A stretch of 49,248 nucleotides of DNA from a virus (Duplodnaviria; Heunggongvirae; Uroviricota; Caudoviricetes), in IMG/VR virus record IMGVR_UViG_2734482538_000012; one strand, 5' to 3'. Under the pieces are notes generated by a model. It was not told the DNA's origin. It did not search any database and saw nothing but the letters and a program-made list of their open reading frames with translations. This document shows positions 9,391-37,907 of the stretch, in pieces (the stretch's first letter is position 1; each line of letters opens with the position of its first letter). Both the position numbers and the translations under genes were made by a program.

Positions 9391-10031
9391 TTGTCGGTAT
9401 ACCTCTCTCGTTTGCTCAGTTGTTCAGGAATATGGTGCAGCAGCTCGCCGTCACCACAGTAAATGGCGGCATGATTCGGCACCGATGAACCAAAACAGCA
9501 CAGCAGCACATCGCCCGGCTGCGCCGTTGACAACGGCACCTGATACAGCCCTGTAGCCTCCAGATTATCCAGATAGAGATTCTGACCATTACGCCACCAG
9601 TCGTCCTCACGATGAAAATCTGGCATCTCAATTCCCGCCAGATGGTAAGCGTCCCGGAACAGCGTGTAACAGTCCGTCACCCCGTGCTCAAAGCGCCGCC
9701 CGGTGAGATGCGGCACACAGCGGAACTTGTGAATCGCCCCGCGGCAGACCAGCCACCACGACAAATCACTCTGCACCTGCAGCCGCCGGTCGGCCTCACT
9801 CAGCCAGGGCAGACCACCGGGGTGGCTGTGGACCAGCGCCACAATCTCACCCTGCATCTCTGCCTGCAGCCAGTCCTCCGGAGCCATCCGGAAATACTCC
9901 TCCGGCTCACCGGAAATATTCACGCAGGGAAAATATCTTTCCCCCTCCGGTGTTCTCACCACGAAGCCGCACGACTCCGCTGGCGCACATCGCCGGGCGT
10001 GCGCCAGAATCGCTGATTCTGTCTGTGTCAT
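9288..10031 (-). CDS. K: Tail assembly protein K (MPN/JAMM plus NlpC/P60 domains)
   Basis: 247 aa; JAMM-like HSHPGG motif; Cys/His pattern typical of NlpC/P60 (GVTDCYTLFRDAYHLAG); gene order K-I. Confidence 0.85.
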   Translation of the reverse strand: MTQTESAILAHARRCAPAESCGFVVRTPEGERYFPCVNISGEPEEYFRMAPEDWLQAEMQGEIVALVHSHPGGLPWLSEADRRLQVQSDLSWWLVCRGAIHKFRCVPHLTGRRFEHGVTDCYTLFRDAYHLAGIEMPDFHREDDWWRNGQNLYLDNLEATGLYQVPLSTAQPGDVLLCCFGSSVPNHAAIYCGDGELLHHIPEQLSKRERYTDKWQRRTHSLWRHRAWHASAFTGICSDLAAASTFV

Positions 10032-21265: not shown

Positions 21266-22652
21266 TGATTTCCATCAGCATTACACTCTGATTTTTTAAT
21301 TCATCGATCACTTCCTCTGGACGGGAATCCTGATCGATAAATTTCAACGCCTGCAACACCCGAACCGCATCAATCTGACGTATATCACCGCCCTGACGCA
21401 ATGACTGAACAGCCAGCGCGGAGGATGAGTCAAACACCTGGGCAGATACATCCAGTTCAGTGCGCACATCCACATTGCCACCGCAACTCTCTCCGATCCA
21501 TTCCGCCATTATCTGGAGAATATTATCGAGGGCATCTTCGAGGGAGTTCGCCATTGTATAAAGCGGCGAGTTTTCCTGCATTCGCTCTTCATTAGTCTGA
21601 TCAACAGATTTGGTGGATGTATTTTCAGCACGCAGAAGTTTAGCGCCGGCATGACGCATCTGATTTTCCAGCTTCTCAAGTGATGTTTCGCCAGATTCTA
21701 TCGCTGCGCCACTATGTTCAACATATTCGAGGCCATTTTTTGTTCTGTCCTCAAAAATCGTAGCGGTGGATGCACCAACCGTCAGTTCTTCATTCCTGTC
21801 CAGCCCGTAGGCCACCAGCAATGGAACGCGGGCAACATGAAGAATATTGTCCTGCTCGCTCTGGCTTTGCCAGTGCTTGATATTCAGCAAGCCAAGATTA
21901 AGCAATGGCGGTGTACCACGCATAAATCCTGTTTTCTTCGTGTACAGTGTTACCAGAGGAATATCATCACGGCTGGTATTCCATGACTCATGAAGCGTCC
22001 AGACAGATTCGCCATTAGTGCCTTCGCTACGTCGATAAATTTCAACTCGACGGGGCATAATATGGCGGATCTGCTCCACCTTCTTCTGCCCGAAATCATC
22101 ACCATCAATAATGATGACCTCTTTTATACGCAAATCAGTGAGAACAACTTTCCCTTTTTCAACTTTCGATTTCCATCCAATAACCTGGCGTGGATTCAGC
22201 ATCGTAACGTACGGACGACCACCGGTCGCGTTTTCATCGGCTTTTGTCCGAATCTCTTTCATATCCGTTCGTGGATAGTCCACCAGCGCATGTGCCACAC
22301 CATACTGAAATGCGAGGCTGAAAAATTGCTGCGCCCACACATCCAGTCGGCTCCCCTCCATGTCGATATTTTCTGCATATTCCCTGATTTTTGCCGGCGT
22401 TTCCTCACTCAATACTGTCGGCTCTGCAAATATGCGCCCAATATTTTGCTTGATGCTTTCTTCATACACAGGAAGTAGCGTAGCCACAGACAGGCGTTTT
22501 TTATAAGCGTCTTCATCTTCGTTAGGCCATTTTGGGAGATAATTTTCCCCCTGCCTGCGCATTTCAAGCGTACCGCCCATCAGTGCGTCGTTAATATCCC
22601 ACGCCTCCAGCATATCGTTATAGTCGAGGTTGGGTGTTGATATATCAGCCAT
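21246..22652 (-). CDS. Portal protein
   Basis: 468 aa ORF immediately downstream of the large terminase gene and overlapping the head morphogenesis gene; size and order typical of portal proteins. Confidence 0.75.
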   Translation of the reverse strand: MADISTPNLDYNDMLEAWDINDALMGGTLEMRRQGENYLPKWPNEDEDAYKKRLSVATLLPVYEESIKQNIGRIFAEPTVLSEETPAKIREYAENIDMEGSRLDVWAQQFFSLAFQYGVAHALVDYPRTDMKEIRTKADENATGGRPYVTMLNPRQVIGWKSKVEKGKVVLTDLRIKEVIIIDGDDFGQKKVEQIRHIMPRRVEIYRRSEGTNGESVWTLHESWNTSRDDIPLVTLYTKKTGFMRGTPPLLNLGLLNIKHWQSQSEQDNILHVARVPLLVAYGLDRNEELTVGASTATIFEDRTKNGLEYVEHSGAAIESGETSLEKLENQMRHAGAKLLRAENTSTKSVDQTNEERMQENSPLYTMANSLEDALDNILQIMAEWIGESCGGNVDVRTELDVSAQVFDSSSALAVQSLRQGGDIRQIDAVRVLQALKFIDQDSRPEEVIDELKNQSVMLMEINDANRE

Positions 22653-22654
22653 AA

Positions 22655-23965
22655 TTAAATCCGAAGTGATGTGACTCTTCCGGTCGGTTTGACAATAGGG
22701 AATTGCTTAACGATGAAATAACCTCCGGCATCATTCGGGTGATCATTGCCAGATTTTTTATCAGGCTCCCCCTTCTCATCCCAGACCTGTTGCTCCAGAG
22801 ATTCGGCATATAACGGGCAACGCTTCACATTAACTTTATAGCGACGCTCACCATTGGCATTGCAGAACATTGCATTCATTGAGTTAACGCGATCTTTTAC
22901 TGGCGGGTTCGAGCTGTTCACCACAACGTTAAAACCAGCCTGCTTAAGCTGGGCTATATCCGTCGTACTTGCGTTACTTGATTTTCTGGAATCCCCGGAA
23001 GCATCTGGATAAATATAAATTTCCCTCACTTTCCGGTAATCATTCCCATCATACAGCCAGAAGCGTTCTTTAATGATGCGGATCATATCCGGCGTATCGT
23101 AGGCATTGATGATTTCAGTTACCGCACATGGAAGCCCCAAACGCAGCACATGGACGATTCCCGCCATCTTTCCAACGTTAAAATCCATCCCAATATAAAT
23201 CGGCTCCCCTGGCTGCTCCACTTCTTCGCAATTATTCAGTTTCCGGTCAAACTGATGGTAAACAGTACCACTTGTCAGGTTAGTAAACTGTCCTCGAAGA
23301 TAGGCTTTAATCAGCTCTGGAGGGTATGATTCAAGAAGCGAAGGAATGTAATCTGCTGGCAGGTTCTTTTCATTATCGAAAGTAGATGCCTGCACCAGAC
23401 CATACAGTGAGGCCAGCTCTGTTTTTTCACGCACGGCTTTAACAAACTGCTCGTAGACAAATTTGAATCCTTCCGGCGTGGTTGTAACGTCAATACCGTT
23501 GCGAAGTCCATCAATCTTATAACGCATACGTGCAATTATCTTGCGCCACGCCGTTCTGGCTTTTTCCTTCGGCAAAATGTCCAGTTCATCCACCAACGCA
23601 TTACCAATTTTGAAACCGACGATCGTTTGTGGCTTCTCCATCGATCTGCAGATAGTGGTTCCCCGATACTGGCGTCCGTAATAAAAGTGAACCTCTTTAT
23701 TTCCCTCATTAATTTTTACGTTCAATCCCCAGTCAGCAGCAACTTCTTCCACTGTAGGGTAAAAAATATCGCGAATTTGGGGATACGTTGGCGCAAAATA
23801 TCCCTGATTTATACCTGGATGCTCCCAAATCCCCTTGCATATGCCGCCACACCCAACCCATGTTTTGCCCGAGCCAAAACCAGCAATATAGGCTTTAAAT
23901 TTATGGGGCATTGAAAGAAATCGCGCCTGAGGCACATTAAGCGTCGGAGAGATCATCTTCATCAC
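22655..23965 (-). CDS. Terminase large subunit
   Basis: 436 aa; Walker-A-like YIAGFGSGKTW near the N-terminus; acidic nuclease-type C-terminal half; followed by the portal gene. Confidence 0.85.
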   Translation of the reverse strand: MMKMISPTLNVPQARFLSMPHKFKAYIAGFGSGKTWVGCGGICKGIWEHPGINQGYFAPTYPQIRDIFYPTVEEVAADWGLNVKINEGNKEVHFYYGRQYRGTTICRSMEKPQTIVGFKIGNALVDELDILPKEKARTAWRKIIARMRYKIDGLRNGIDVTTTPEGFKFVYEQFVKAVREKTELASLYGLVQASTFDNEKNLPADYIPSLLESYPPELIKAYLRGQFTNLTSGTVYHQFDRKLNNCEEVEQPGEPIYIGMDFNVGKMAGIVHVLRLGLPCAVTEIINAYDTPDMIRIIKERFWLYDGNDYRKVREIYIYPDASGDSRKSSNASTTDIAQLKQAGFNVVVNSSNPPVKDRVNSMNAMFCNANGERRYKVNVKRCPLYAESLEQQVWDEKGEPDKKSGNDHPNDAGGYFIVKQFPIVKPTGRVTSLRI

Positions 23966-25031
23966 TCCTTACTCTGGCATCAACCACATTAATATTGATC
24001 GCCACAGGCTGGGGATGTTCATTATCTTCCACCGTTTCGATCTCTTTGCGCAGCTTCTGGTTTTCCATTCTGCGCCGTTCAATTTCCAGTTCCCGTAGCC
24101 GCTTATCTGCACATAAAGCCCCGCCAGCAGAAAACAAACGCAACAATTCACGCCGGGCGGCAGCCTTATCCTCCAGCAGGATCTCAACGCCGAATTTTCC
24201 GAATTTTGCCCCTGCATATAATTGCCGCGCATCCCCATCAAGCAGAGTGGTATCAGCCATATAAAGCTGTCCCGTTCCCTCACCGCAGCACTTCGGGCAG
24301 TCCGGATTGGGTATGGCGTTATCAACAAAGCCGAGGCCTCCATATTCCGGTTCGGGTTTGCCATCTCTGGAAGCCTGCGCCGCTGCCTTGTCGAATTCTG
24401 CTATATCGCGCCACTGGTAGAGATGATTCTCGCCCCAGCAATAACGGCAGTTAACACGGCGAAATTGTGCAAGCTGATTGGGGTCGGCCAGGACAATAGC
24501 CATCAACTGACTCACTAGTAAATCCAGGTCTGCGGTATAGCGTTTCTGGTACTGATTGCGGAAGTAGCTGATAGCGCGAAAAACCCTGGCATTTCTAAGC
24601 ATACGACTGGCGTTGCTGTTAGCTGTCGCACCTTGCCCCTCATAACCGGCTAGTCGGTACGCCTCTGTCGGCTTTTTACCCTGAGCAACAAGCATCGCAA
24701 ACTTAGCCTGCTGGTCAGAAATGCCGAATTCATCGGGACAGAACGAAAATTCCTCCGCGTCGCCCTCATTCAGGCCCGCATCGAATACTGGCTTTTTTTC
24801 CTGAGATTTTTCGTTCCGCTTTTGTGCAGTCTGCGCAGATTTTTTCTGCGCACTTTTTTGCGCAGTTTTGCACATTTCTGTCTGCGCATTTTTCGGAGTT
24901 TTTTTGATGTAACGACGGGCTGTTGCGTAATTCAGTCCCCTTGCTTCACACCATGCCACCGGAGATATACCGGAGCGGGTGTATTCAGCAATATACTCCT
25001 GCTGCAACGCCCCCCAGTCCGGTCTGCTCAT
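23937..25031 (-). CDS. Putative terminase small subunit / DNA-recognition protein (HTH plus Cys-rich region)
   Basis: 364 aa, immediately upstream of and overlapping the large terminase gene; N-terminal HTH-like segment (ISPVAWCEARGLNYATARRYI); CxxC...CxxC cluster (CRYCWGE...CPKCCGEG). Larger than a typical small subunit, so the function is tentative. Confidence 0.5.
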   Translation of the reverse strand: MSRPDWGALQQEYIAEYTRSGISPVAWCEARGLNYATARRYIKKTPKNAQTEMCKTAQKSAQKKSAQTAQKRNEKSQEKKPVFDAGLNEGDAEEFSFCPDEFGISDQQAKFAMLVAQGKKPTEAYRLAGYEGQGATANSNASRMLRNARVFRAISYFRNQYQKRYTADLDLLVSQLMAIVLADPNQLAQFRRVNCRYCWGENHLYQWRDIAEFDKAAAQASRDGKPEPEYGGLGFVDNAIPNPDCPKCCGEGTGQLYMADTTLLDGDARQLYAGAKFGKFGVEILLEDKAAARRELLRLFSAGGALCADKRLRELEIERRRMENQKLRKEIETVEDNEHPQPVAININVVDARVRSDEDDLSDA

Positions 25032-25034
25032 CAG

Positions 25035-25286
25035 TTAGTCCTGATTTTTATCCACCCTGAGTAGTTCGCGCAGAGCAAAGGCATCCCCTTTTCTGGCAAG
25101 CTTAAACAATGCCGCTCGTAACTCGGCTTCACCTTTCGCTCTGCCCTTACGGATGGCCGCATAAAAATCTGTCATTGCTTCCCGATTTTCTTTCAGTCGG
25201 TTCAGATCAACATCCAGAACGTCAGCGATTTGTTGTGCAGTCATCCGGCACGCTGCCAGAGACTCGACTTTCGAATACGGAATCAT
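25035..25286 (-). CDS. Small putative DNA-binding protein (83 aa)
   Basis: ORF upstream of the terminase genes; HTH-like segment MTAQQIADVLDVDLNRLKENR; overlaps the 3' end of the upstream gene. Confidence 0.35.
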   Translation of the reverse strand: MIPYSKVESLAACRMTAQQIADVLDVDLNRLKENREAMTDFYAAIRKGRAKGEAELRAALFKLARKGDAFALRELLRVDKNQD

Positions 25287-26172
25287 TTGTCACCCCCATT
25301 GATATGCAGGGTGTCTTCTTCCTGTATTTTTCGTGAAGGATTTTTACTGCAGCGTTGTTCCAGGTGACCTGATGGTGAATGCGTTTATGACTGGCACCCA
25401 TAAGTGAGATTTTTACGCACGACGGCGCATACATGACGGAGTAAAAACTTTTAACGTAGGTTCCGGAATCCAGATACAGCTCGGTCATTCCGCCGCTGTT
25501 TTTCTGCGTCTGTTTCTGCCCTAACTGGACAGCACCGATCGTCATAAACAATTCACCACAGCGACCGAGATTCGTGTACGTATTCACATCCTCGTTAATG
25601 CGCCCCATGAATGAGAACGGTCGATCAACCGAACAGATAAAGCTGTTCATTGCCTTGCGTTTCACCCACGAAGCATGGCCGCCATTGTCACCAAGAAAAT
25701 CCCCGCCCTGCGACATAGCGATGGAAAGAGCAGGTATTGATTCGTAGTACGCAAGCATTTCAGAAAGGATCTCATCCAGTTTCCTTATCGGGAAATAGGC
25801 CTGGTCATAGTTGCGATCCACCCGAAACTGGAACTCGTGATAATCATCATCGAGCTGAATGAAGTATTTACACCCGACCAGTTTTGCCTGGTCGAAACAG
25901 GCATTACGGGCGTAAAAAATTGAGCGGCGGTCACTAAAATTATCGGCTTCGTCAAAACGACTAGCAATATCGGCTTTGGAAAATACCAGCACCTGTTCAC
26001 CAAATTCAGCCATGTACTGATGCCGTGTCTTATCTTCATCATCAACAACGATAAAAATTTTCCCGGTATAGCCAGCACGACGCAACGTCCGGTAAGTCAG
26101 AACTTTGTCCGGTCGCCCGTGAGTCAGAATAAAGGCGCAAAAATCATCACGCATATTCCTCCTCCCCGCCAT
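25222..26172 (-). CDS. Hypothetical protein with a DxD-type motif (possible GT-A-like nucleotide-sugar transferase fold), partner of the ParB-like gene
   Basis: 316 aa ORF overlapping the stop of the upstream ParB-like gene; hydrophobic strand followed by acidic cluster (IFIVVDDEDK) and YFIQLDDDYHEF; function not established from sequence. Confidence 0.4.
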   Translation of the reverse strand: MAGRRNMRDDFCAFILTHGRPDKVLTYRTLRRAGYTGKIFIVVDDEDKTRHQYMAEFGEQVLVFSKADIASRFDEADNFSDRRSIFYARNACFDQAKLVGCKYFIQLDDDYHEFQFRVDRNYDQAYFPIRKLDEILSEMLAYYESIPALSIAMSQGGDFLGDNGGHASWVKRKAMNSFICSVDRPFSFMGRINEDVNTYTNLGRCGELFMTIGAVQLGQKQTQKNSGGMTELYLDSGTYVKSFYSVMYAPSCVKISLMGASHKRIHHQVTWNNAAVKILHEKYRKKTPCISMGVTNDSVFESRVSGSVPDDCTTNR

Positions 26173-26935
26173 GCATGATCTCCACCATGCGCTGCGTCAT
26201 TCGGACAAATCCATTTTCAATAGCCTGCTGATAATCAATGATCACCAGCGCCGACTCCTCGAAAAGGCACTGAATTTCAGCGGGGGCATGAGCGTAATAG
26301 TCCGCAATTCTGCTGAAATTAAACACCGTGTGACGTTCTGCTGCACACAGGAGGAATTTCTCAATATCAGGATCAAGGGACGCCGAACGTATCCGGCTGA
26401 TCAGCTCCTGAGTTTTCGTATCGTCGTACAGTTCACTGATATCCGGTTTACCGCCTGACGGCTCATAAACAGGCGTATCAATTTTCGTCGTATACGGCTC
26501 CTCCTCATTTCCTGTACCGGGCAAAACATCCGTCAACAGTTCATCAATTTCTGCCGGGATGAAGCCTGTCAGGGAGACATCAAAATCAGCATTGATTAGG
26601 TCCGACAGCTCCATCCGCAACAGATCTTCATCCCAGCCAGCATTCATCGGCAGGCGATTATCTGCCAGGCGGTACGCCTTTTTCTGCTCATCCGTCAGGC
26701 CAGACAGAACAATGACCGGAACAGAATCCATTTTGAGCATTTCAGCCGCCATAACACGACCGTGACCCGCAATAATTTCGCCCTTTTCGTCAATCAGCAC
26801 CGGATTAGTCCAGCCGAATTGCTTAATACTTTCTACCAGTTGTGCCACCTGCTCAGTACTGTGCGTCCTGGCGTTGTGCGCATACGGTGACAATTCTTGT
26901 AATGGGCGATAGACTATCTTTAATTTCTCGCTCAT
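26147..26935 (-). CDS. ParB-like nuclease domain protein
   Basis: 262 aa; N-terminal ParB/Srx-type motif (YAHNARTHSTEQVAQLVESIKQFGWTNPVLIDEKGEIIAGHGRVMAA). Confidence 0.75.
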   Translation of the reverse strand: MSEKLKIVYRPLQELSPYAHNARTHSTEQVAQLVESIKQFGWTNPVLIDEKGEIIAGHGRVMAAEMLKMDSVPVIVLSGLTDEQKKAYRLADNRLPMNAGWDEDLLRMELSDLINADFDVSLTGFIPAEIDELLTDVLPGTGNEEEPYTTKIDTPVYEPSGGKPDISELYDDTKTQELISRIRSASLDPDIEKFLLCAAERHTVFNFSRIADYYAHAPAEIQCLFEESALVIIDYQQAIENGFVRMTQRMVEIMHGGEEEYA

Positions 26936-27072
26936 ACAGCCTTGCTTTATGAATAAAACGCACCCCAGCAGCCAGTGCTACTGGGGGCGGAGGTGTTGCT
27001 GGTAAAGTTAGGTATTGGATCAATGAGTGAGTCAACATAATATTAAACTCACAATTATAAATCAGCCATATA

Positions 27073-28530
27073 TTAGGAGCGCCAAAAAAAACCTGAAAAC
27101 AATATAATAACAGGATAAATTTCAAGGCGACCAAGAATCATAGCTATGCACATTAAATATTTTGCAATGTCATTAAGCACTCCGAATGACGATGCAGTAG
27201 CCCCAAAACCTAATCCCATATTATTAATACATGCAGCCACTGTTGCAAATGATGTAAGAAAATCATATCCCATACCATTTAACACCAGTATAAAAAACAC
27301 CGTGAAGAGAGTATAAAGAAAAAAGAAACTCCATACAGACCTCATTACACGATCTGTAACTATCTTCCCTCCTACATTTACACTCAACAACGCTCTGGGA
27401 TGAGAAAGCTGATTTATCTCGTGTTTGCTTTGTTTGAAAAGTATAAGAAATCGAAGTGACTTAATTCCACCACAGGTTGAACCTATACATCCCCCAAAGA
27501 AACTTGACAACAGCAAAAACACTATCGTGTGCGTGGGCCAGTTTGCATAATCCTGCGTAGCTAAACCATTATCAGTGAGCATGGAGCTGGCAAGAAAAAA
27601 CGAATGAATAAAACTTCCATGCAAGTCATACATACCTATATGCCAGACCTGGAAAGAGGTAACAATGATCACCCCTAAGGCTATTAACAGAAAGAAACGA
27701 AGTTCAATATCTCTGATTAAAGGTTTTATCGTTTTTCTGCTAATAACAATATACCAAAGAGTGAAGTTGAAAGCCGATAGCAGGGAAAAAGAACCAGCCA
27801 CCAGCTCAACCAAATAGTTATTAAAATATCCGATACTCTCGCTATGAGTTGAGAAACCACCAAGCGAAACTGTGGAAATCCCGTGACAAATAGCATCAAA
27901 CAAAGGCATTCCTGCAAGTCTATAACAGACAATACAAGCAATACCTAATAAAGAATAAGTTATCCACAGTGTCCGTGACGTATCGGCCAGGCGGGGAGTG
28001 AGTTTGTCATCCTTAAATGGCCCCGGCATTTCTGACTGATAAAGCTTTGCACCACCAATACCCAATAATGGCAATACTGCAACCGCCAGAACAATAACTC
28101 CTAAACCACCTATAAAATTTAACTGTGACCGATAGTACAAATATGCCCGAGGTAATGAACTAACATCATCAATTACAGTTGCTCCTGTTGTTGTTATTCC
28201 AGAAACCCCTTCAAACAGAGCATCAATGAACGTTAAATTAAGTTCTGAGTCAATCCATAAAGGGAATGCACTAATAACAGAAAACAAAATCCAAAACATT
28301 ACAATTATAATAAACCCATCACGGGTACGTAATTGAATGCCAGATTTCTTAGTTGTATACCACGCTCCGCCACCAATGCAAAAAAATATAACGAAAGTTA
28401 TAAAGAAAACGAACAGGCTTTTTTCTTTATAAAACAATGCTACAACCATTGGTGGCAACATTGAAAGACTATAGAGCCAAACCAGGAACCCACACATATG
28501 AGTAACAACTCTTACATGAGATGTATTCAT
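27073..28530 (-). CDS. trkG: Trk-system potassium uptake protein TrkG (TrkH/KtrB family)
   Basis: Multi-pass membrane protein with repeated selectivity-filter-like glycine motifs (GITTTG, GLGVIV, SLGGFST, TCGGIKS); start MNTSHVRVVTHMCGFLVW at 28530 matches my recollection of K-12 Rac TrkG; markedly AT-rich relative to its flanks. Confidence 0.85.
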   Translation of the reverse strand: MNTSHVRVVTHMCGFLVWLYSLSMLPPMVVALFYKEKSLFVFFITFVIFFCIGGGAWYTTKKSGIQLRTRDGFIIIVMFWILFSVISAFPLWIDSELNLTFIDALFEGVSGITTTGATVIDDVSSLPRAYLYYRSQLNFIGGLGVIVLAVAVLPLLGIGGAKLYQSEMPGPFKDDKLTPRLADTSRTLWITYSLLGIACIVCYRLAGMPLFDAICHGISTVSLGGFSTHSESIGYFNNYLVELVAGSFSLLSAFNFTLWYIVISRKTIKPLIRDIELRFFLLIALGVIIVTSFQVWHIGMYDLHGSFIHSFFLASSMLTDNGLATQDYANWPTHTIVFLLLSSFFGGCIGSTCGGIKSLRFLILFKQSKHEINQLSHPRALLSVNVGGKIVTDRVMRSVWSFFFLYTLFTVFFILVLNGMGYDFLTSFATVAACINNMGLGFGATASSFGVLNDIAKYLMCIAMILGRLEIYPVIILFSGFFWRS

Positions 28531-28667
28531 ATCTAAATATTCTTTCAATTATAACCACCTTGCTGCAATATTATGATTATACTGTATAAAATTTAACTCC
28601 TCTTAGATCTTACTTCACTGTTCCTTATGAAACAATCATCAAAATGAATCATATTGTAGTTAAGATT

Positions 28668-29132
28668 TTACTTTAAACACTGCTCGGTTATGTATTGCTG
28701 AGCACCTTCAAGTTGGGCCTGCATCATTACCAGTCGTTCCCGGAGGGTGAAATAATCCCGTTCAGCGGTGTCTGCCAGTCGGGGGGAGGCTGCATTATCC
28801 ACGCCGGAGGCGGTGGTGGCTTCACGCACTGACTGACAGACTGCTTTGATGTGCAACCGACGACGACCAGCGGCAACATCATCACGCAGAGCATCATTTT
28901 CAGCTTTCGCATCAGCTAACTCCTTCGTGTATTTTGCATCGAGCGCAGCAACATCACGCTGACGCATCTGCATGTCAGTAATTGCCGCGTTCGCCAGCTT
29001 CAGTTCTCTGGCATTTTTGTCGCGCTGGGCTTTGTAGGTAATGGCGTTATCACGGTAATGATTAACAGCCCATGACAGGCAGACGATGATGCAGATAACC
29101 AGAGCGGAGATAATCGCGGTTACTCTGTTCAT
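28668..29132 (-). CDS. rzpR: Spanin, inner-membrane subunit (Rz)
   Basis: Track ORF 28668-29144; likely start [17 protein letters not shown] (N-terminal transmembrane segment) followed by a coiled-coil periplasmic region; directly downstream of the endolysin gene. Confidence 0.8.
28727..28912 (-). CDS. rzoR: Spanin, outer-membrane lipoprotein subunit (Rz1), embedded in Rz
   Basis: 61 aa ORF in the +1 frame entirely inside Rz; lipobox LVVVGC; proline-rich ([18 protein letters not shown]). Confidence 0.75.
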
Positions 29133-29626
29133 TGCTGACCCCACAAACAGATTTCACGCTCAATCTCACGACGAGTCATGAGACCTTTCCATTGCTTACC
29201 GCCAGCATATGTCCAGCGACGTAGCTGATCACATGCGCCTTTGATATCGCCCTGGTTTATTTTGCGAAGAAGCGTCGATGTTCTGAAATTGCCAGCGCCC
29301 ACGTTGTAAACGAATGAGTAAAGAGCGCCGCGCGTTGTTTCCGGTATATCGACTTTGATGTACGGGTTAATTTGTCTGGCGACAGTGGCAAGGTCTTTAT
29401 TCAAGAGTGTTTTGCATTCTGCTTTGGTATACGTTTTACCGAGCATGATGTCTTTTCCTGTATGCCCGTGACATACAGTCCATACACCAACAATATCTTT
29501 GTATGGTATGTAGCTGACACCTTCCAGACCATCGTTACCACTTGGGCCAGTGATTAACACTGATGCTATAGCAATTGCTCCGCCACCAATAGCAGCAGCA
29601 ACGACTTTTCGTAATGATGGAGGCAT
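29129..29626 (-). CDS. SAR endolysin (lysozyme, phage 21 R type)
   Basis: 165 aa; N-terminal Gly/Ala-rich signal-anchor-release segment ([16 protein letters not shown]); lysozyme core similar to phage 21 R as I recall it. Confidence 0.85.
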
Positions 29627-29841
29627 TATTCACCTCTCGCAGCCTTGCGCTTATCTTCTTTAATCTTGAAATAAAGGTTTGTCAGGTACGTCAGCAGGCC
29701 AAATACCAGACTACCCAGCACACCGATTGCAGCCCACTGTGACGGAGTTACTCTATCGAGCAACTGTAAAAACCAGTAGCCAGCACTGCCTGCGGAGGTG
29801 CCGTAGGCAATGCCTGTTGAAATTTTGTCCATGGATTTCAT
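29626..29841 (-). CDS. Pinholin (phage 21 S type) with dual-start motif
   Basis: Track ORF 29626-29898; [31 protein letters not shown]...[15 protein letters not shown] matches the S21 pinholin as I recall it; Met1-Lys-Ser-Met4 dual start gives 71 and 68 aa products. Confidence 0.8.
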
Positions 29842-30092
29842 AGCCTCACCTCCGCACGGAACGGATGGCATAGTTATTATGTGTAGGCTTTCAGACACAT
29901 CAATCAGAGCCTTAATTGATATATATGCTGGAGACGATGCAATATAAAAAGCTCGCCGTAGCGAGCTAATAAAATGTATTTCTCTGATATTATGTTTATT
30001 TGTATTAGCTCAGACTTGACATCACAGGTTTCGTATATAGAACATCATCAAATCTGTCAGTTTGCTATGAATGAGATATAGTAATTGAAGAG

Positions 30093-30488
30093 CTAACCTC
30101 GCATGTCAAAGCCAGATTTCTGAAAATCTCTGTAGACTTCCGGATTGTTGAAGGCCGGAAATTTGGCTTTATGAGCTGCGGACTTTATCGCTTCGCAATA
30201 GGCTTTATCACCGTTACTGGTAGATATTTTTAACGCCGTGCCATCCTGAGAGAATTCCATATGCAACCTGCATTTTTTCCCTTTCCAGTTATGCGGCTCA
30301 TCAAGTTTGGCATTAATTGCAGCTCTGATTCCCCGCGCTTGCGCCCCCCATTCATCCTGATCATCCCAGCGTCCTGAACTGCAACTACCTGTAGCAGTAG
30401 TTTTGTGGCAATCTGAAGGGTGTAAAGGTGTGCATCCCGCAACAAAACCGACCCAAAAAGTCAACATAACGATTTTCTTTAATCCCAC
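30093..30488 (-). CDS. Lipoprotein with TolA C-terminal (domain III)-like region
   Basis: 131 aa; signal peptide with lipobox (FVAGC); C-terminal ...KGKKCRLHMEFSQDGTALKISTSNGDKAYCEAIKSAAHKAKFPAFNNPEVYRDFQ is a paralogue of the adjacent gene and resembles TolA domain III. Confidence 0.6.
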   Translation of the reverse strand: MGLKKIVMLTFWVGFVAGCTPLHPSDCHKTTATGSCSSGRWDDQDEWGAQARGIRAAINAKLDEPHNWKGKKCRLHMEFSQDGTALKISTSNGDKAYCEAIKSAAHKAKFPAFNNPEVYRDFQKSGFDMRG

Positions 30489-30638
30489 TTCTTGCTCCTC
30501 AATCCATTAAAATCTCAGCAATAGTAGTTGTTACGTCCGCCACTGGCTCAGAGCTGACTATCCGCTAAATTTAGCTCAGTGCCGTAGCTGTGTCAGAACA
30601 AACCTAAGCCGAAACCGTTTATTACAAAACAATAAATA

Positions 30639-31067
30639 TCAGGGTTTAAAATCCAGCACCCCATTTTGAAATACTTTATATACTTCCGGCGAAGGGGGGG
30701 CAGGTATATCAGCATTCTTTATCGCATTCATCGCTTCACGACATAAATCGAGGTCTCCACTTTCTCTTTTAACCTCCAGTAGAAGGCCATTCGGGGCCAT
30801 ATGCATTCTCAGTGTACACTCTTTTCCTGAATACTTACTCGCATCCCCGAACTGTTTTTCGATGGCGCTCTTGATTTGATGGGCATACAGACGGATATCC
30901 TCACTAACATCAGAAGTACGTTCAGATGAACTCACATACTGTGTCTCTATTGCTTTATCGGAGTAATATGATGTACGGTCATGATAATTTGTCGATACAG
31001 CATCAGTGCACCCGATAATAATCCCACTAATAATCAACGTAAGAATTGATGCGCTACGAAAACCCAT
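30639..31067 (-). CDS. Lipoprotein with TolA C-terminal (domain III)-like region
   Basis: 142 aa; lipobox (IIGC); C-terminal YAHQIKSAIEKQFGDASKYSGKECTLRMHMAPNGLLLEVKRESGDLDLCREAMNAIKNADIPAPPSPEVYKVFQNGVLDFKP closely parallels the C-terminus of E. coli TolA as I recall it. Confidence 0.7.
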   Translation of the reverse strand: MGFRSASILTLIISGIIIGCTDAVSTNYHDRTSYYSDKAIETQYVSSSERTSDVSEDIRLYAHQIKSAIEKQFGDASKYSGKECTLRMHMAPNGLLLEVKRESGDLDLCREAMNAIKNADIPAPPSPEVYKVFQNGVLDFKP

Positions 31068-31655
31068 TTTTCCTCACATATGTCATATAGTAAAGGATTA
31101 TATATACCGTTGTTTTGGACGCTCAAACAGCGAATCAGATCAAATAAAACGCACATTTGTTAACATTTACACAAAGTCTGCGTGGGATATTCTGAAAGAA
31201 TATCCATAATGTGGAGAGAATCTATTGAAGTGCATGGTGCCGGGTGCCTCCCGGTGAACAAAATGTTCGTGATACCTGTCGGCGACAGAAAAGGTTAATG
31301 GTATCACCCCACCGCACAGGGGGATTCACCATGCAGGAGTTTTCTTAGCAAACTCACTGCGCGCCCGGCAACTCCCAACCACATAAAATGCGGAGTTTGT
31401 GGCATTTATGCATATAACTCGCAGGAATTATCTTAAAAAACTGATGTCGATCCGGATTAAAAAGAAGCAGGTCATCATCAGATGACTGGAAAAAAGGAAA
31501 ACAAAAAATACTCATCATACAGTTTTGATTGCAGGGATGAGCCTGCTATGCACAATATGCAGAATATAAGCAAGATAAAAATATGCAGGCATATTATTTC
31601 GGATCTTGTTATTAACACAACCTTTTTAATAATCATTTGGCATACAATAAACCAG

Positions 31656-31684
31656 CCCAAAAAGAACCGCCTAAACAGGCGGTT
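31656..31684 (-). terminator. Rho-independent terminator (minus-strand orientation) in the Q to lysis intergenic region
   Basis: Inverted repeat aaccgcct-aaac-aggcggtt; on the minus strand the stem is followed by cttttt. Coordinates approximate. Confidence 0.5.
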
Positions 31685-32003
31685 GGTCAATACAAAGGAT
31701 GCTTCGTCTTTATTATAGTAATCTGAGGCGTCGGGTGTCTTGTATCAGACAACATATTGTCCCGCTAAACAGCGAATTACAAACCACCCTGCAATGATCT
31801 CTCATCTCATTTTATATGAGTTGACGACATCAGGATAACGCATCATCAGCCCCTGCCAAGAAATATCAAAACTCCCGCCAGCAATGTGTTATCACAATAT
31901 TGTAAAAAAAACACAGCACCGAAACTATAACTGGTCTCTGTTATAATTTGGAGCAGAAAGACCAGTTGCCCAACTAGCAGCATTCTCCCCTGCTTTCCTG
32001 ACG

Positions 32004-32031
32004 TAAAAAAACCGCATTAAGCGGTTTTTTT
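32004..32031. terminator. Bidirectional hairpin terminator about 80 nt downstream of Q (candidate tR'-like element)
   Basis: aaaaaaaccgc-attaa-gcggttttttt: A-run, short GC stem, T-run, so it reads as a terminator on both strands. Confidence 0.5.
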
Positions 32032-32111
32032 ACGATGTCCATGTCTGCAATCCGCCTCGCGATACAGCTTTGCGAAGCATAGCAAAATTGAAGCAGTTTA
32101 TACGTAAGAAA

Positions 32112-32654
32112 TCAAGCCATTTTCTCAGCAAATGATTCACGCATGGGAATATATAGGGCATACTCAGCAACAGCTAACCAATTAGCAATCCGTTTTTCGC
32201 ATGTGCTAAAACACCACTCTGGGTGTGCATCATTTAGCAATTCAGCCATTTTGCGCTTAGTCATCCCCCGCCCTTCATAGCGTTGCCGGAGAATGCAAAT
32301 CAATCCTGGATGCTCTGCCAGCACCTCACTTATGACTCGATCAATACATAACGCCTCTGCATCAGTACAATGCGCCAGCCAGCTCTTTTGCTTGCCGTTG
32401 ATCATCTCTCGCAAAAACGCTTCCAGCTCAGCTTTCTCTATTCCCGCTTTTTTCATTCTGCGCAGGGCTTCATTAATGGCTGTTTTCGTCAGTTTTTTGG
32501 ATGCCAACAACTGATTGAACATATTCCCTGACCTGCCACCGCCAATATACGACCAGCGCCCCCACATACGTAGTTTTCCCTGAATCCAGACACTTTCCAG
32601 CGTGGTGAGGCGAAGGTGTTCTCCGCTTTTTCCTGTATTCGTTGGGTAAATCAT
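32112..32654 (-). CDS. Putative late-gene antitermination protein Q
   Basis: 180 aa ORF last in the nin-region operon and immediately upstream of the terminator/late region and lysis cassette; assignment mainly by position. Confidence 0.5.
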   Translation of the reverse strand: MIYPTNTGKSGEHLRLTTLESVWIQGKLRMWGRWSYIGGGRSGNMFNQLLASKKLTKTAINEALRRMKKAGIEKAELEAFLREMINGKQKSWLAHCTDAEALCIDRVISEVLAEHPGLICILRQRYEGRGMTKRKMAELLNDAHPEWCFSTCEKRIANWLAVAEYALYIPMRESFAEKMA

Positions 32655-32941
32655 AAATGACCTTTCTTTCTCCAGATTTCTTGTGTGCGAAAAACCCCTT
32701 CAGCATGCATCAGGCGCAATTCTTCTTTGGTGTAATCGCTGGTTTTTACCCGCCCGTCGATTAGATCGTGGCATGAGCTACAGGCTATCGCCGCCTGCAT
32801 ATCATGTGGTTTTGTCGCTGTTCCGCACGTCCCCGCCAGCCTGTAATGCGCCAGCACAGAGGTTTCGGGATTGTGATTGCAGTAGCCAGGGATTCTGATC
32901 TGGCACATCTGGCCTTTAGCCGCTTTACGTAAATTCACCAT
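32651..32941 (-). CDS. Nin-region Cys/His-rich protein (YbcO/DUF1364-like)
   Basis: 96 aa; Cys/His pattern CQIRIPGYC...H...C...H...CSSCHDLIDG; same length and gene context as DLP12 YbcO as I recall it. Confidence 0.55.
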   Translation of the reverse strand: MVNLRKAAKGQMCQIRIPGYCNHNPETSVLAHYRLAGTCGTATKPHDMQAAIACSSCHDLIDGRVKTSDYTKEELRLMHAEGVFRTQEIWRKKGHL

Positions 32942-33540
32942 TACGCAAACTCCAGTAGTTGTGCGGCCACATTTTCAACTTCCTCCTGAGAGGAGAATTT
33001 ACGGAACAGAATCCAGTTCCACAGCACATTCAGTACAGATTTATAAACCTGCTGAAACTCGACTTCGTCCATATTCGCAAAAGCGATGGATTTTGCCCGA
33101 CGCCCACGGCTACCGTCCGGATAAATATGCTCGGTGTAAAATCCGGCCTGAATGGTTACCCACTCGCGGAAAGCCTCAAACGACTTTAGCAACGCCGTAT
33201 CCCGGGTTCTACGAGTCGCAACGGTGTTAAGGTATTGCTCTGCGGCATCACTCAGGGCTGGCGTGTGTTCCCGACCAACTGATTCGCACAGGTAATCAAC
33301 GAAACCAGACAGCAGTTCTCGTTCGCGAGGCGTGATCGCCCCACCGACCGGAGTCCAGTAATCGAATCCCAGTTGCAGGAGTTTGAAAAAACGCTTGTGG
33401 AATGCGTAGTTACGCACACGCTTAAAGTCTGCGTGTATCCACTCACCTATTTTGATTTGATGCAGAAAATCGCAACTCTCCGGCGTCGCCGGGAGAAGTA
33501 AACCAGAAGAGGTTTGTTTGACCAGTTGTATATGCGCCAT
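32941..33540 (-). CDS. Nin-region hypothetical protein
   Basis: 199 aa ORF with ATG at 33540, translationally coupled to the downstream gene; no recognisable motif. Confidence 0.45.
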   Translation of the reverse strand: MAHIQLVKQTSSGLLLPATPESCDFLHQIKIGEWIHADFKRVRNYAFHKRFFKLLQLGFDYWTPVGGAITPRERELLSGFVDYLCESVGREHTPALSDAAEQYLNTVATRRTRDTALLKSFEAFREWVTIQAGFYTEHIYPDGSRGRRAKSIAFANMDEVEFQQVYKSVLNVLWNWILFRKFSSQEEVENVAAQLLEFA

Positions 33541-33820
33541 TTCTCAATCTCTCGATGGCGCAGCGCAGCAGATGCCAGTTGTTCAGGCTGACGAATAAAG
33601 TATAAATAAACTGGCTATGGTGTAAAGCCCCACATAGCATGAACAAACACTACATATCAAATAGCTGGTACAAGGATAGAAATACGACACTTATTATTAA
33701 AAACGATTAGATAAATTACATTTTAATGTTATGCAAAAGTTCTTTTTTATCATAACATTTCAATAAAAGCATTACAGATGCAATCATCCCGTCATCATCA
33801 ATTATTTAAGGTGGTTAAAC

Positions 33821-33907
33821 ATGGAAAATAACAAGTTCGCACATCTCGCTCCTTTTTTATCCGTAATCCTTTTCGCTTGTTGTTTTATATGGGCATTATT
33901 TTTATAA
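33821..33907 (+). CDS. Small hydrophobic peptide (28 aa) with a strong ribosome binding site
   Basis: aaggtgg 7 nt upstream of the ATG; hand translation MENNKFAHLAPFLSVILFACCFIWALFL, a single predicted transmembrane helix; lies in AT-rich intergenic DNA. Not in the ORF track (below 60 aa). Confidence 0.3.
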   Translation: MENNKFAHLAPFLSVILFACCFIWALFL

Positions 33908-34353
33908 AGTAGCCACATGATAAGTTGCTGGAATCATATTTCCCACTCAAGTCATTAACATTTGATAAGATATATCTAAAAGGACGCCTTTACATTATTT
34001 ATGCGTATATAATTTATTTATATACACAGTAAAGGTATCCTGGGAAAATATTTATCGTTAAAAAATACATCATAAATAATTAAGCTGAAATTTCAGAACA
34101 CAACTAATACACACAATAAGGTTCAGTAACAGTAATCTATGTGGACTACATCGAGATTTTTTGATTAAACTTTAATAACTTATTCCTAACACACAGAATG
34201 CATAAACTAAAAGTAAAACAAATAGTTATACGAAAAACAACCATATTTATTCTATCTTCTCCTCTAATCAACATATCAATTATGTGTTTCATAACAGCTT
34301 GACATAACCCTCCAAAAGATGCATTTTTAATGCATGTTTTGGAGGAGGTGGTT

Positions 34354-34692
34354 ATGACACACAAGAGAATTCCTAAAGATTGGGTAATCAAACGCTCAAC
34401 TCCGTTCTTCACAAAAGAGAACGTACCTTCAGCGTTATTAACACATCATAATACAGCAGCAGGTGTTTTTGGGCAGTTGTGCGTAATGGAAGGCACTGTA
34501 ACATATTATGGTTTTACTGATGAGAATGCTACTGAACCGGAGATAAAAGTAGTCATTAATGCTGGCGCTTTTGCAACAAGCCCACCACAATACTGGCACC
34601 GTGTTGAACTAAGCGATGATGCTCAGTTTAATATTAACTTTTGGGTCGCTCCAGACTTTTCGGGCGAAAAAGTCTATAGCACCAAAAAATAG
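34354..34692 (+). CDS. Hypothetical protein (112 aa), opposite strand to the surrounding late/nin genes
   Basis: Track ORF 34330-34692; likely start MTHKRIPKDW at 34354 preceded by ggaggaggtgg; terminator-like hairpin downstream. Confidence 0.55.
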   Translation: MTHKRIPKDWVIKRSTPFFTKENVPSALLTHHNTAAGVFGQLCVMEGTVTYYGFTDENATEPEIKVVINAGAFATSPPQYWHRVELSDDAQFNINFWVAPDFSGEKVYSTKK

Positions 34693-34721
34693 ATGATCAT
34701 ATTAAAAATGCTTTAACAGTC

Positions 34722-34758
34722 AGACCCGGCAGGGCTATCCCCGACGGGTCTCATTTTT
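34722..34758 (+). terminator. Putative terminator after the plus-strand gene 34354-34692
   Basis: Inverted repeat agacccg...cgggtct followed by cattttt; coordinates approximate. Confidence 0.4.
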
Positions 34759-35312
34759 GTAAATATATTGGTTCTACATTGACAGGAGACTTCAACCATA
34801 AGAAGTAATCTGAATACTTGAGCAATAAATTTACTTAAGATTAATGAGCGCACCTTGCCGGACAAAGATAAACCAAGGTAACACCTTTTTTCTAGCCAGT
34901 ATGTAATCAATCAGAAAGCCGCTCCATAAGAACAACAGCAAGACAATAAATTGCCATTACAGCCGCAATAGCCAGCGCACATTTGAGAACCAGCACGACA
35001 ACCCCCTGTATTAGACGCACACCAGTCCTGATAAATATGAGGCTGTCTCGTCAGTGATTCAATACAACTATTGGGTATAGTTTCTGTGATTTTATTCTGT
35101 AGAAATGGAACACAACAACCAGTCACCACCAGCACTTCCTTAAATGCTCTAAGTCAGAAACAAGCCAACATTTTAGTCCGCTTTGAGCGATCTGCAGACA
35201 TTGCTAGCAGCCTTCTGTGTGAATTCTCAGGGAGCAGGTCGGCATAGCATCACGTTGAGGCTCTTACCCTACTTGTTCACACCAACCCTAACTCCACAGA
35301 CTGATTCATAAA

Positions 35313-36314
35313 TTAGTAATCTGCGTGTTTCGCACTTTTCAGAAATGCTTTCATATTTTCATTAGGTCGCTCAATTTCGAAGTTACTTCCATATAACTCT
35401 TGTAATTTTGGCCATAACTTACTTAATAACCCTCTCCTGCGATAAAATGGATGTATCCAAACGGTAGATAGGTACGGAGAATTTGCATTTGAATTGTTTA
35501 TTGTGACCAGCCCAACTAAACATTGTCGATAACCACTATTATCCATTGATTGTATTTCTTCGACGAATGGATACGCGATTACATCAGTCCAACCATGATC
35601 GGTTGTATCCCATTGCATTCCGTCATGACATTCCTTCGACTGATAGCGGCGTAAAGCTACACACGCGAGCTTTTGCCAATCTGGAGAATTAATTGTGATC
35701 TCTTCATCGTATGACGCGCCTATTGGAGCGGGTATTGGTCTGATTAATCCAGCATGGCATTCATCATAGAACTTCATGTTTCCCTCAGAAACGTTGTGTA
35801 CGTTGGGTTGCTCCATGTGTGCGCCATTCAAAAATAGCTCTGATAGTAGTGTATCTACACTGTAATCTTTATTGATTATTGTCGGCTTAGAGTTTTTCTT
35901 ATTAAGGCCGCGAGTAACGATTTTTTGATCAATGTTAACAACATGGAATAATCCGTCGGGGAGGCTAGCGAACCACGATGGGGCATCGGACCAGAATAGC
36001 ATGCCTTTTGTACTTCTTAAGAGTTTAATTAAGTTAATACAAGCTTCTTCACTAGTCTTGCCGTTGATGCGAAGTATGTTAGGACTAAAGTAATATTCAT
36101 CCATATCAGGGAATGCAGCTTCGCAAAACTCCTGTACATAATTTAGCACCTGGATTCTACAGAGATCATCATAGCTGGTAATAACTAAGGGGGTATCTTC
36201 ATTACTATTATGATTATCAATAATGCAATCTATAGCGAGACTTACTGCTTTGCGTATCACTTCAGTTGAATCTAACGACTCTAAAAATTTTGTCTTTCGT
36301 GTGCGAATATCCAT
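35313..36314 (-). CDS. Hypothetical protein with C-terminal GNAT-like (acetyltransferase-like) region
   Basis: 333 aa ORF 15 nt downstream of the HEPN-motif gene; C-terminal segment CLVGLVTINN...STVWIHPFYRRRGLLSKLWPKLQELYG resembles the beta4-alpha3 acetyl-CoA-binding motif of GNAT enzymes; AT-rich codon usage. Confidence 0.5.
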   Translation of the reverse strand: MDIRTRKTKFLESLDSTEVIRKAVSLAIDCIIDNHNSNEDTPLVITSYDDLCRIQVLNYVQEFCEAAFPDMDEYYFSPNILRINGKTSEEACINLIKLLRSTKGMLFWSDAPSWFASLPDGLFHVVNIDQKIVTRGLNKKNSKPTIINKDYSVDTLLSELFLNGAHMEQPNVHNVSEGNMKFYDECHAGLIRPIPAPIGASYDEEITINSPDWQKLACVALRRYQSKECHDGMQWDTTDHGWTDVIAYPFVEEIQSMDNSGYRQCLVGLVTINNSNANSPYLSTVWIHPFYRRRGLLSKLWPKLQELYGSNFEIERPNENMKAFLKSAKHADY

Positions 36315-36329
36315 GTATGACCTGCGCTA

Positions 36330-37352
36330 TTAAAATTCATGAATGAACGGTTTGTCATCTGGTTGCAAAATGGTGGTTTTATTCGTTGCTACATTTAAAC
36401 TGTTGTAGAGCATAATTGCCAGGTTCGATGCATTTTCAATCAGCGTTTCAAGATCCTGGTCTGTAATCACTACGAGGTTCCCTTCTTTATCCTTTCCACC
36501 ACGATGCACTAAGTGATTTCGATTGAGGGTTGCCAATTCAATAGCTTCTATCGGACAGTCTTTTTGTACTTTTATATCGAATGTAGCTTCATAGCGGTCG
36601 ATTACCTTTTTAGTGCTATGCCAGCTTGCACTGATCAAGTGTTCCTTGATTGACCTGATTAGCTCTCCCCTAATTTTCTCGATGGGTTCACCCTTGAAAG
36701 GCAACGCAGCAATATCTTTGCTTACTTTAAATTCAGTCTTACCTTTTTCTATACAATTGGCTATGTAGACATCATCTTTCTCTATAGAATTAATGAATAG
36801 CTCAACATAAAGCGTTTCCAAAGCTGTAATAACATTCGTGTAGAGCAAACTAAGCAAGTGGTTTTTTTGCTGTTGTTCAGTTTTATCTTTTGCAAGTTTT
36901 TTTATTTTATCGATATTATCAATGAATTTTAAATACGGATTACCGGAAGACGTTACAGCGTCGTAGATATCATCATCGTACCAATCATCTATATTATTTG
37001 AGTTTCCAGACCAGTCAAAACATTGTGTTTGTAATTCATCTACTAATTCCTCAATATACTCAGATTTAACATATTGACCGAAGATGGATTGTAGTTCTTC
37101 GCTCGCATCATACGGCCCGCCATATATGTAAGCATAGCCACCTTCTCTACTTTCATACGGACAAGCATTTGCCGGATCTTCAAAGTTTTCAAAGAACCAG
37201 TTTTTCATTACTTCGAGTTGATCTTTTTTGCTTATGTATTTTAAAGATTTTAGTGGAACTTTCTTTCCATTAACCTCGAAAACAATTTTCACGATGTAAC
37301 GCTCCCTTGTATCAATTGCGCAACTATTATACCACAGCGAAATACAGGGCAT
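36330..37352 (-). CDS. Hypothetical protein with HEPN-type R-x4-H motif
   Basis: Track ORF 36330-37421; likely start at ATG 37352 (MPCISLWYN) with an AAGGAGG Shine-Dalgarno 6 nt upstream; canonical RNxxxH motif (LNRNHLVHRGG, encoded about 36504-36521) in a predicted helical C-terminal region; AT-rich. Confidence 0.5.
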   Translation of the reverse strand: MPCISLWYNSCAIDTRERYIVKIVFEVNGKKVPLKSLKYISKKDQLEVMKNWFFENFEDPANACPYESREGGYAYIYGGPYDASEELQSIFGQYVKSEYIEELVDELQTQCFDWSGNSNNIDDWYDDDIYDAVTSSGNPYLKFIDNIDKIKKLAKDKTEQQQKNHLLSLLYTNVITALETLYVELFINSIEKDDVYIANCIEKGKTEFKVSKDIAALPFKGEPIEKIRGELIRSIKEHLISASWHSTKKVIDRYEATFDIKVQKDCPIEAIELATLNRNHLVHRGGKDKEGNLVVITDQDLETLIENASNLAIMLYNSLNVATNKTTILQPDDKPFIHEF

Positions 37353-37490
37353 AACCTGCCTCCTTAAACTAACATACCATGAGCCAGCAATGTCCGCTAT
37401 TGGCACAAAGCGGACAACCACGCTAGCTCTCCCCTGTGCCAGAAAAATGTCAATTTACATATGAACTAATGCTCTTTGATCTAGTAACGT

Positions 37491-37907
37491 CTATAAATAC
37501 CGAAGATTTCCTTGATAAAATGCCAGTACACGTTTCATAACTTCACTCTTCCGGCACTCGCGACAGATTATGTTCTGACGCCTGTCATAGCGGCGTATTT
37601 CTCCGTCTGGTAATGACCAGATAAGGTCAGGATCAACCACAACCGTTTTTTTCACCTTTGCCCTGGATAGTTTTTTGCGGGCGTTTTTCCAATCCTTACG
37701 AGCCTGTTCAGACGGGAATAACCCATAGCCAGAGTTGTATACATCGCCACTGGCAACCAACTCTCTGGCAAGAATGCTCATCAGATATCTTGTCGCACCT
37801 GTCTTGGCCTCCAGTTGCCTTAACGTCTCGCGCCCACTCTGGCGTACCAACTCAACAACCTGCTCCTTAATTTTTTCACGCTCTTCCTGTGTAAAAACTT
37901 TTGCCAT
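37491..37907 (-). CDS. Hypothetical protein (about 138 aa), possible winged-helix DNA-binding protein
   Basis: Track ORF 37491-37922; likely start MAKVFTQEEREKIKEQVVELV; basic C-terminal half. Confidence 0.4.
   Translation of the reverse strand: MAKVFTQEEREKIKEQVVELVRQSGRETLRQLEAKTGATRYLMSILARELVASGDVYNSGYGLFPSEQARKDWKNARKKLSRAKVKKTVVVDPDLIWSLPDGEIRRYDRRQNIICRECRKSEVMKRVLAFYQGNLRYL

Follow-up and report, generated by a model that had tools for sequence, protein, structure and literature searches.

The minus-strand gene at positions 27073-28548 of the viral record IMGVR_UViG_2734482538_000012 (a stretch of 49,248 nucleotides (nt), called the window throughout) is, as judged by comparison of its product with known families, trkG, which codes for the membrane subunit that conducts ions in the Trk system of K+ uptake. 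Very probably, trkG and its own promoter together make up a lysogenic-conversion cargo of about 1.66 kb, which sits in the post-lysis slot of a lambdoid prophage of the Rac type and would provide the host with an auxiliary Trk pore subunit. Comparison with sister prophages supports its reading as an AT-rich cargo gene, or moron, in a slot that in those relatives is taken by other cargo, genes of LT-II-type enterotoxins included. The elements of the cargo and of its downstream flank are as follows:

27073..28548, minus strand: coding sequence (CDS) of trkG, an uninterrupted open reading frame (ORF) that specifies 491 amino acids (aa) from TTG 28548 or 485 aa from ATG 28530
28549..28667, minus strand: upstream regulatory region that accompanies trkG, very AT-rich and identical to its K-12 counterpart
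27006..27072, minus strand: 3' flank of the cargo, from the trkG stop codon to the point where homology with trkG-less prophages resumes, containing an AT-rich hairpin without a U-tract
26952..26986, minus strand: terminator-like hairpin detected by terminator scan, with a 12-bp stem and a 4-nt loop, followed by UGCGUUUUAUU

The first-pass annotation of this DNA had assigned the gene to the TrkH/KtrB family of K+ transporters and equated it with trkG of the K-12 Rac prophage, and both assignments are borne out. The Pfam TrkH model, PF02386, matches the product over its whole length (E 1.1e-144, 483 bits against a cut-off of 27, profile positions 3-500 out of 502), the score of 415 with TIGR00933, a subfamily model of the TrkH family, is above the cut-off of 331, and the TrkH structures from V. 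parahaemolyticus (3PJZ and 4J9U) can be aligned end to end (E 2e-121). Alignment with TrkG from the annotated MG1655 record shows identity at 483 of 485 residues (99.6%), the two differences being S330N and C458Y; at the DNA level the identity is 99.5%, and RefSeq labels identical DNA as trkG. The protein also matches phrog_1916 in PHROGs, whose profile has 491 positions and carries the label 'unknown function'.

TrkG and the product of trkH, a core gene of E. coli, are of the same fold family and length, share the four pore loops with filter glycines, and both work with TrkA according to the literature (PMC9898762). The sequence of TrkG is nevertheless that of a TrkH paralogue, not of an orthologue: identity to Salmonella TrkH is about 41% (tblastn), and the NCBIfam equivalog model for TrkH, NF008020, is matched at 452 bits, below the cut-off of 866. 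K-12 TrkG has been reported to be Na+-dependent, Na+-permeable and regulated by H-NS, unlike TrkH, and the GC content of trkG is 38%, compared to the 53% reported for trkH (PMC9898762).

All four filter glycines are in place, namely G116 (TTTGAT), G225 (SLGGFS), G322 (TDNGLA) and G439 (NNMGLG), and these glycines, along with D327 and R468, are invariant in 54 of 54 homologues from the clade. R468 has a gating role in TrkH. In K-12 TrkG, D121, E231 and D327 lie 5-6 residues from the filter glycines, and the glycine positions found here agree with that spacing; D327 has been implicated in Na+-dependent activation (PMC9898762). At the two positions that distinguish the K-12 allele (S330 and C458) from the allele in the window (N330 and Y458), Y458 is the ancestral state and C458 of K-12 is derived, and position 330 is variable in the clade.

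The gene was said to lie between the packaging module and the lysis cassette, and this location is confirmed, with Rz upstream and the ParB-like and terminase genes downstream. The two genes that border the cargo are:

28668-29144, minus strand: Rz (Pfam Phage_lysis), directly upstream of the trkG module
26147-26935, minus strand: ParB_N-domain protein of 262 aa (Pfam), the full-length version of what remains in K-12 as ynaK

Comparative mapping places the limits of the cargo module at approximately 27005 and 28667. At the right edge, genomes that do not have trkG lose homology within this Rz or at its end, and in alignment with two other lambdoid prophages homology stops at the Rz stop codon. 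At the left edge, the trkG-less prophages of strain C7 and of E. coli WY517-2, both of which carry the same ParB-like/glycosyltransferase/terminase module at approximately 91% identity, align up to position ~27005. The content of the slot varies: WY517-2 has the genes for the A and B subunits of an LT-II-type enterotoxin (approximately 8365-9502 of its locus), C7 has a gene with a KTSC domain (approximately 6900-7600), and other lambdoid prophages with a related Rz have YlcI, DUF1398, PerC and HNH genes. In the literature, LT-II operons have a phage lysozyme gene on one side and a parB-like gene on the other and are described as morons (PMC3252337), and they have been assigned to full-sized Rac-like prophages (PMC5917428). 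The view of trkG as a host-physiology gene embedded in a prophage holds; its base composition is deviant, and in related prophages other cargo occupies the same slot. Capture by aberrant excision next to the attachment site was considered and rejected, as trkG lies in the middle of the prophage genome, far from the integrase gene (int, 48013-49248). The only flanking repeats that might mark an insertion are short and AT-rich, for example CAATTATAA at 27049-27060 and 28543-28554, and are compatible with chance.

The trkG CDS has a GC content of 38.0%, and of 32.5% at third codon positions (GC3), compared to 47.6% in the rest of the window (runs of N excluded) and to 48.1% and 45.5% in the left and right 5-kb flanks; in the 137 nt upstream of the gene (28531-28667) the GC content is down to 25.5%. 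The markedly lower GC that had been noted for the gene was checked by windowed calculation and is real, if not unique within the window: the z-score of trkG is -1.8, and 29 of 803 windows of the same size are equally low, all of them in two other AT-rich islands, at approximately 33300-34700 and 35300-37500 (see below). The value of GC3 led us to reject the possibility that the low GC comes from the hydrophobic amino-acid content of a membrane protein. Two islands of extremely low GC in the raw profile, at 4001-4500 and 6001-6500, are artefacts of masked runs of N.

A promoter belonging to trkG itself had been suspected in 28549-28667, and this is supported by the conservation of the region and by published work on its K-12 counterpart. 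The region is base for base the same as in K-12, so that results on the K-12 promoter should apply here. Genomic SELEX (systematic evolution of ligands by exponential enrichment) with the RpoD holoenzyme detected a constitutive promoter at K-12 trkG, the only one in Rac, from which the authors deduced that trkG had brought its promoter along when it entered Rac (PMC5811629). A fusion of the K-12 trkG promoter to lux is active, and trkG mRNA is elevated in hns and hns stpA mutants, the gene being not fully silenced (PMC9898762). Comparison with a diverged copy of trkG in E. albertii (see below) shows 86% identity in 28549-28639, versus only 65% at third codon positions, which indicates constraint on this non-coding region. 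Candidate promoter elements include two perfect TATAAT hexamers, at 28581-28576 and 28553-28548, and a weaker TTTAAA-N18-TATGAT arrangement at 28677-28648 found by the consensus scan. A search against Rfam at E <= 1 found no known RNA element, such as a riboswitch, around trkG, only a chance match to a small nucleolar RNA well below threshold.

Downstream of trkG, the hairpin at 26952-26986 ends 17 nt upstream of the ParB-like gene's start codon and folds with -25.5 kcal/mol (z -3.5, with none of 200 shuffles as good). In the lysogen, it likely insulates the packaging genes from the cargo. Within 27006-27072, no canonical terminator was found by terminator scan or by folding.

The sequence of events that we favour starts with a phage that captured a low-GC member of the TrkG-type clade, along with its control region; in other Enterobacterales this is an ordinary chromosomal gene, often a neighbour of ychF. 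In a lysogen, trkG would be transcribed from its own sigma-70 promoter, partly damped by H-NS/StpA, and the hairpin at 26963-26986 would probably stop the transcripts before they reach the packaging genes; translation would most likely start at TTG 28548. The protein would insert into the inner membrane as a Trk pore subunit and borrow the TrkA gating ring and SapD from the host, trkA and sapD being host genes outside the window. Given the 99.6% identity to the K-12 protein and the intact pore residues, TrkG may be expected to mediate Na+-activated K+ uptake and some Na+ uptake, and the host would gain a second medium-affinity route of K+ uptake that backs up TrkH. For K-12 TrkG, Na+-dependent K+ uptake, Na+ uptake, dependence on TrkA and compensation for the loss of TrkH have been described (PMC9898762).

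Several observations weigh against this reading. The empty site, with nothing between this Rz and this ParB-like gene, was found in 0 of 5426 complete E. coli genomes when queried with the joined sides; the boundaries of the cargo are therefore taken from mosaic comparisons, and its insertion is deduced from those only. A good -35 element is missing for both TATAAT hexamers, and the promoter scan gave 8 sites versus 9.2 +/- 2.4 in shuffled sequence, which is no excess. The DNA of the hairpin at 26952-26986 is homologous in the trkG-less prophages of strains C7 and WY517-2, where the corresponding segments fold weakly (z -0.6 and +0.4), and the claim that trkG has its own terminator thus finds partial support, in the strong hairpin with a U-tract downstream of the gene; the hairpin may be an element of the phage backbone that has been sharpened in the trkG lineage. 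Since S330 is named as a contact of D327 in the model of the K-12 protein (PMC9898762), the Na+ dependence of the N330/Y458 allele could differ. Finally, single deletion of K-12 trkG gave no growth phenotype in the conditions tried (PMC9898762), and because no condition has been found in which this deletion changes growth, the benefit to the lysogen is assumed.

The lack of a growth phenotype would also suit a neutral hitch-hiker, silenced by H-NS and persisting via linkage to a successful prophage, and so would the AT-richness of trkG, which is like that of H-NS targets, and the repression of K-12 trkG by H-NS/StpA. The 1.8-kb trkG region is found in 1551 of 5426 complete E. coli genomes, with 1515 of 1555 records at least 99% identical, as would be compatible with recent clonal or phage spread; near-identical regions are also seen in 10 deposited phage genomes, e.g., ON470614, which is labelled 'complete genome'. 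We nonetheless consider neutral persistence very improbable. The dN/dS ratio (non-synonymous to synonymous substitution rates) is 0.047 against the E. albertii copy, at a dS of 0.92, which is in the saturating range, and 0.10 against K-12, so that trkG is, by this measure, under purifying selection. All functional residues are invariant, and the upstream region is conserved more than synonymous sites. trkG stays intact while neighbouring phage genes decay: 1546 of the 1555 E. coli records hold an essentially complete copy, whereas the adjacent ParB-like gene is covered to at least 80% in only 874 of 1602 records, the truncated forms including the K-12 and B types and laboratory strains being over-represented in the count. 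Moreover, K-12 TrkG, which compensates for the loss of TrkH, is expressed at a level similar to that of trkH (PMC9898762).

Cargo that works for the lysogen, the reading we prefer, also has to be set against a role of trkG in the lytic cycle. The neighbours of trkG on the minus strand, with lysis genes upstream and packaging-side genes downstream, are all co-oriented with it:

32112-32654, minus strand: Q-like antiterminator (Pfam)
29626-29898, minus strand: holin (Pfam Phage_holin_2_1)
29129-29626, minus strand: lysozyme (Pfam Phage_lysozyme)
28727-28912, minus strand: Rz1, embedded in Rz (from the ORF list)
28668-29898, minus strand: the lysis cassette as a whole
25222-26172, minus strand: glycosyltransferase of the TAGT type, 316 aa (Pfam, PHROGs)
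25035-25286, minus strand: ORF of 83 aa
23937-25031, minus strand: small terminase, followed by the large terminase and the head and tail genes
23937-26935, minus strand: start of the packaging-side module (Pfam, PHROGs and the annotation of two near-identical loci)

With such an arrangement, trkG might also, or mainly, be read from Rz under Q antitermination and re-establish K+ and the membrane potential at a late stage of infection, sustaining late protein synthesis up to lysis. The gene is on the same strand as S-R-Rz and immediately 3' of it, the scan found no terminator-like site between Rz and trkG (28549-28667), a Q-type antiterminator is encoded upstream, and linkage of trkG to Rz and to the ParB-like gene extends across about 1500 genomes and the deposited phage genomes; for the LT-II cargo, which shares this slot, induction along with the prophage has been suggested (PMC3252337). 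If trkG does have this role, the cargo of the post-lysis slot would be switched on together with lysis, in line with the suggestion for LT-II. We judge it unlikely, however. The Rac prophage of K-12 has no Q, no late promoter and few of the late genes, yet its trkG is intact and expressed, and the retention of the gene where the late apparatus is gone indicates that it is in the prophage state that selection acts. The copy in E. albertii, outside any lysis or packaging context, is still under strong purifying selection, and the TTG start and the rare codons of trkG (17 ATA and 5 AGA) do not suggest high late expression.

The evolutionary history of trkG is consistent with capture of a promoter-plus-gene unit from a host chromosome. 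In E. albertii NBRC 107761, a diverged trkG (5983-7458 of the locus examined; 93% aa identity, 38% GC) is found at a chromosomal site other than Rac, with copD/DUF2511 genes on one side and, on the other side, genes for an NleF-like effector and a metallophosphatase, and rsmF. This copy shares the upstream region to position ~28660, as well as approximately 40 nt past the stop codon, which suggests an independent, or a very old, acquisition of the same unit. Both the Rac and the E. albertii copies have a GC content of ~38% despite nearly saturated synonymous sites, and thus their low GC is old. TrkG-type genes at 61-79% identity are widespread across Enterobacterales: in Pectobacterium and Morganella the gene directly follows ychF (in the order pth-ychF), among housekeeping genes, in Buttiauxella and E. 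fergusonii it lies in non-phage neighbourhoods, and in Citrobacter it is part of an island with dynamin-like and RHS genes. These chromosomal genes (62-79% identity in Pectobacterium, Morganella, Buttiauxella, E. fergusonii and Citrobacter) belong to the same clade as Rac trkG, with invariant D327 and pore residues and the same TTG start and N-terminal extension, and differ from it in their non-phage neighbourhoods and in a GC content of 42-51%, closer to that of their genomes. No donor of the 38%-GC gene was found, as identity falls from 93% in E. albertii to 79% in E. fergusonii with nothing in between. An apparent third paralogue in Shigella flexneri SFBU0723, at 47% identity (approximately 5714-7596 of its locus), was rejected, because it turned out to be the same trkG; the region has 94.7% DNA identity, 40 gaps and many in-frame stop codons, and is either a pseudogene or a long-read assembly error.

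Comparison with these homologs also bears on the translation start. RefSeq and UniProt place the start of TrkG at ATG 28530, six codons downstream of TTG 28548. The TTG is preceded, at a distance of 6 nt, by a Shine-Dalgarno sequence AAGGTGG (28561-28555), and no Shine-Dalgarno sequence precedes the ATG. The TTG and an upstream motif similar to GGAGG or GGGAG are conserved in E. fergusonii, E. albertii, Citrobacter and Pectobacterium, whereas the position of the ATG is occupied by CTG in Citrobacter and by ATT in Pectobacterium, so that it cannot be the start in these two genera. In most of the close homologs the annotated length is 491 aa and the N-terminus can be aligned with MKEYLD, and the phrog_1916 profile covers all 491 positions. 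Probably, then, TTG 28548 is the true start and 27073-28548 the true CDS, and the textbook start of the 485-aa TrkG may be six codons too late.

That Rac carries trkG has been known since 1991, and its foreign origin, its own promoter, control by H-NS and Na+-dependent transport are likewise established knowledge. What the present analysis adds is the delimitation of the cargo and its placement in a variable slot, the status of TrkG-type genes as ordinary chromosomal genes in other Enterobacterales, which points to phage capture of a host gene with its control region, and the start-codon correction (TTG, 491 aa), which is open to direct test. A full-length prophage that carries trkG would be, in addition, a convenient system in which to tell the benefit of this gene to the lysogen from its benefit to the phage.

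Among the closest known systems is Rac of K-12 itself, with a near-identical protein (UniProt P23849, b1363), the same upstream region and the same neighbours, i.e., the Rz remnant and ynaK. It differs in being a 23-kb remnant, in which Q, holin, lysozyme, head and most tail genes have been deleted and ynaK is truncated, compared to ~49 kb here. Another parallel is offered by the LT-II operons of Rac-like prophages and by bor of phage lambda, which is found in the post-lysis slot: like trkG as read here, they are independent transcription units of deviant composition in the late region, located between the lysis genes and the ParB-like or terminase genes. The cargo itself is different, trkG being a host-physiology transporter, LT-II a toxin and bor a serum-resistance lipoprotein, and trkG, unlike bor, is co-oriented with the late genes.

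The gene content of the window is that of a Rac-type lambdoid prophage of ~49 kb with a full set of modules, from tail-fibre assembly through to integrase. Its right end holds the genes for immunity, replication and recombination along with the integrase gene; the integrase, SieB and the Q-like protein are supported by Pfam. The window and K-12 Rac are collinear over int, xis, recET, racC, kilR, sieB, ydaS-V, Rz, trkG, ynaK and stfR/tfaR, in blocks of 98-99.9% identity wherever K-12 DNA remains, which identifies this prophage as a member of the Rac type. The closest genome is a prophage of E. coli O78 strain 3, identical (100%) over 21544-37468, which has lost its head genes and gained IS2; the head genes are intact in the window. 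Three masked runs of N, at 3998-4237, 6113-6430 and 7389-7638, fall in lom and the tail-tip J region and split the ORFs there, and the integrity of these tail genes cannot be checked because of the masking. The first-pass annotation had spoken of a complete phage, which is plausible in view of the full set of modules and the intact head genes; the lom/J region is the part for which this cannot be confirmed, and inducibility is not a property that can be read from sequence.

A few other features of the prophage deserve mention. The ParB-like protein is similar to the N-terminal domain found in ParB-methyltransferase fusions of phages (PADLOC MTase_II, 1.5e-38; phrog_498), and the glycosyltransferase at 25222-26172 is TAGT/GREB1-like (Pfam PF20691, E 4e-34), with a match to phrog_842, labelled 'beta-glucosyl-HMC-alpha-glucosyltransferase' (E 8e-104). 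Remnants of this region (25222-26935) persist in K-12 as ynaK/ydaY. The two genes may form a DNA-modification system; no TET enzyme or other enzyme that forms hydroxymethylcytosine is encoded near the pair.

Between the Q-like antiterminator and the holin, the minus strand encodes two small paralogous proteins with the TolA C-terminal domain, at 30093-30488 and 30639-31067 (Pfam PF06519, E 1e-14 and 2e-23; both phrog_5772), which marks another cargo position. As a matter of speculation, these proteins could interfere with Tol-dependent colicins or phages.

The two further AT-rich islands, 33300-34700 and 35313-37421, have a GC content of 34-37%. One of them contains a DUF1971 gene on the plus strand (34330-34692); the other codes for two hypothetical proteins (333 and 363 aa), for which the matches to GNAT and HEPN_RES_NTD1 are only weak and PADLOC gives none. 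Both islands are probably additional cargo, perhaps related to defence.

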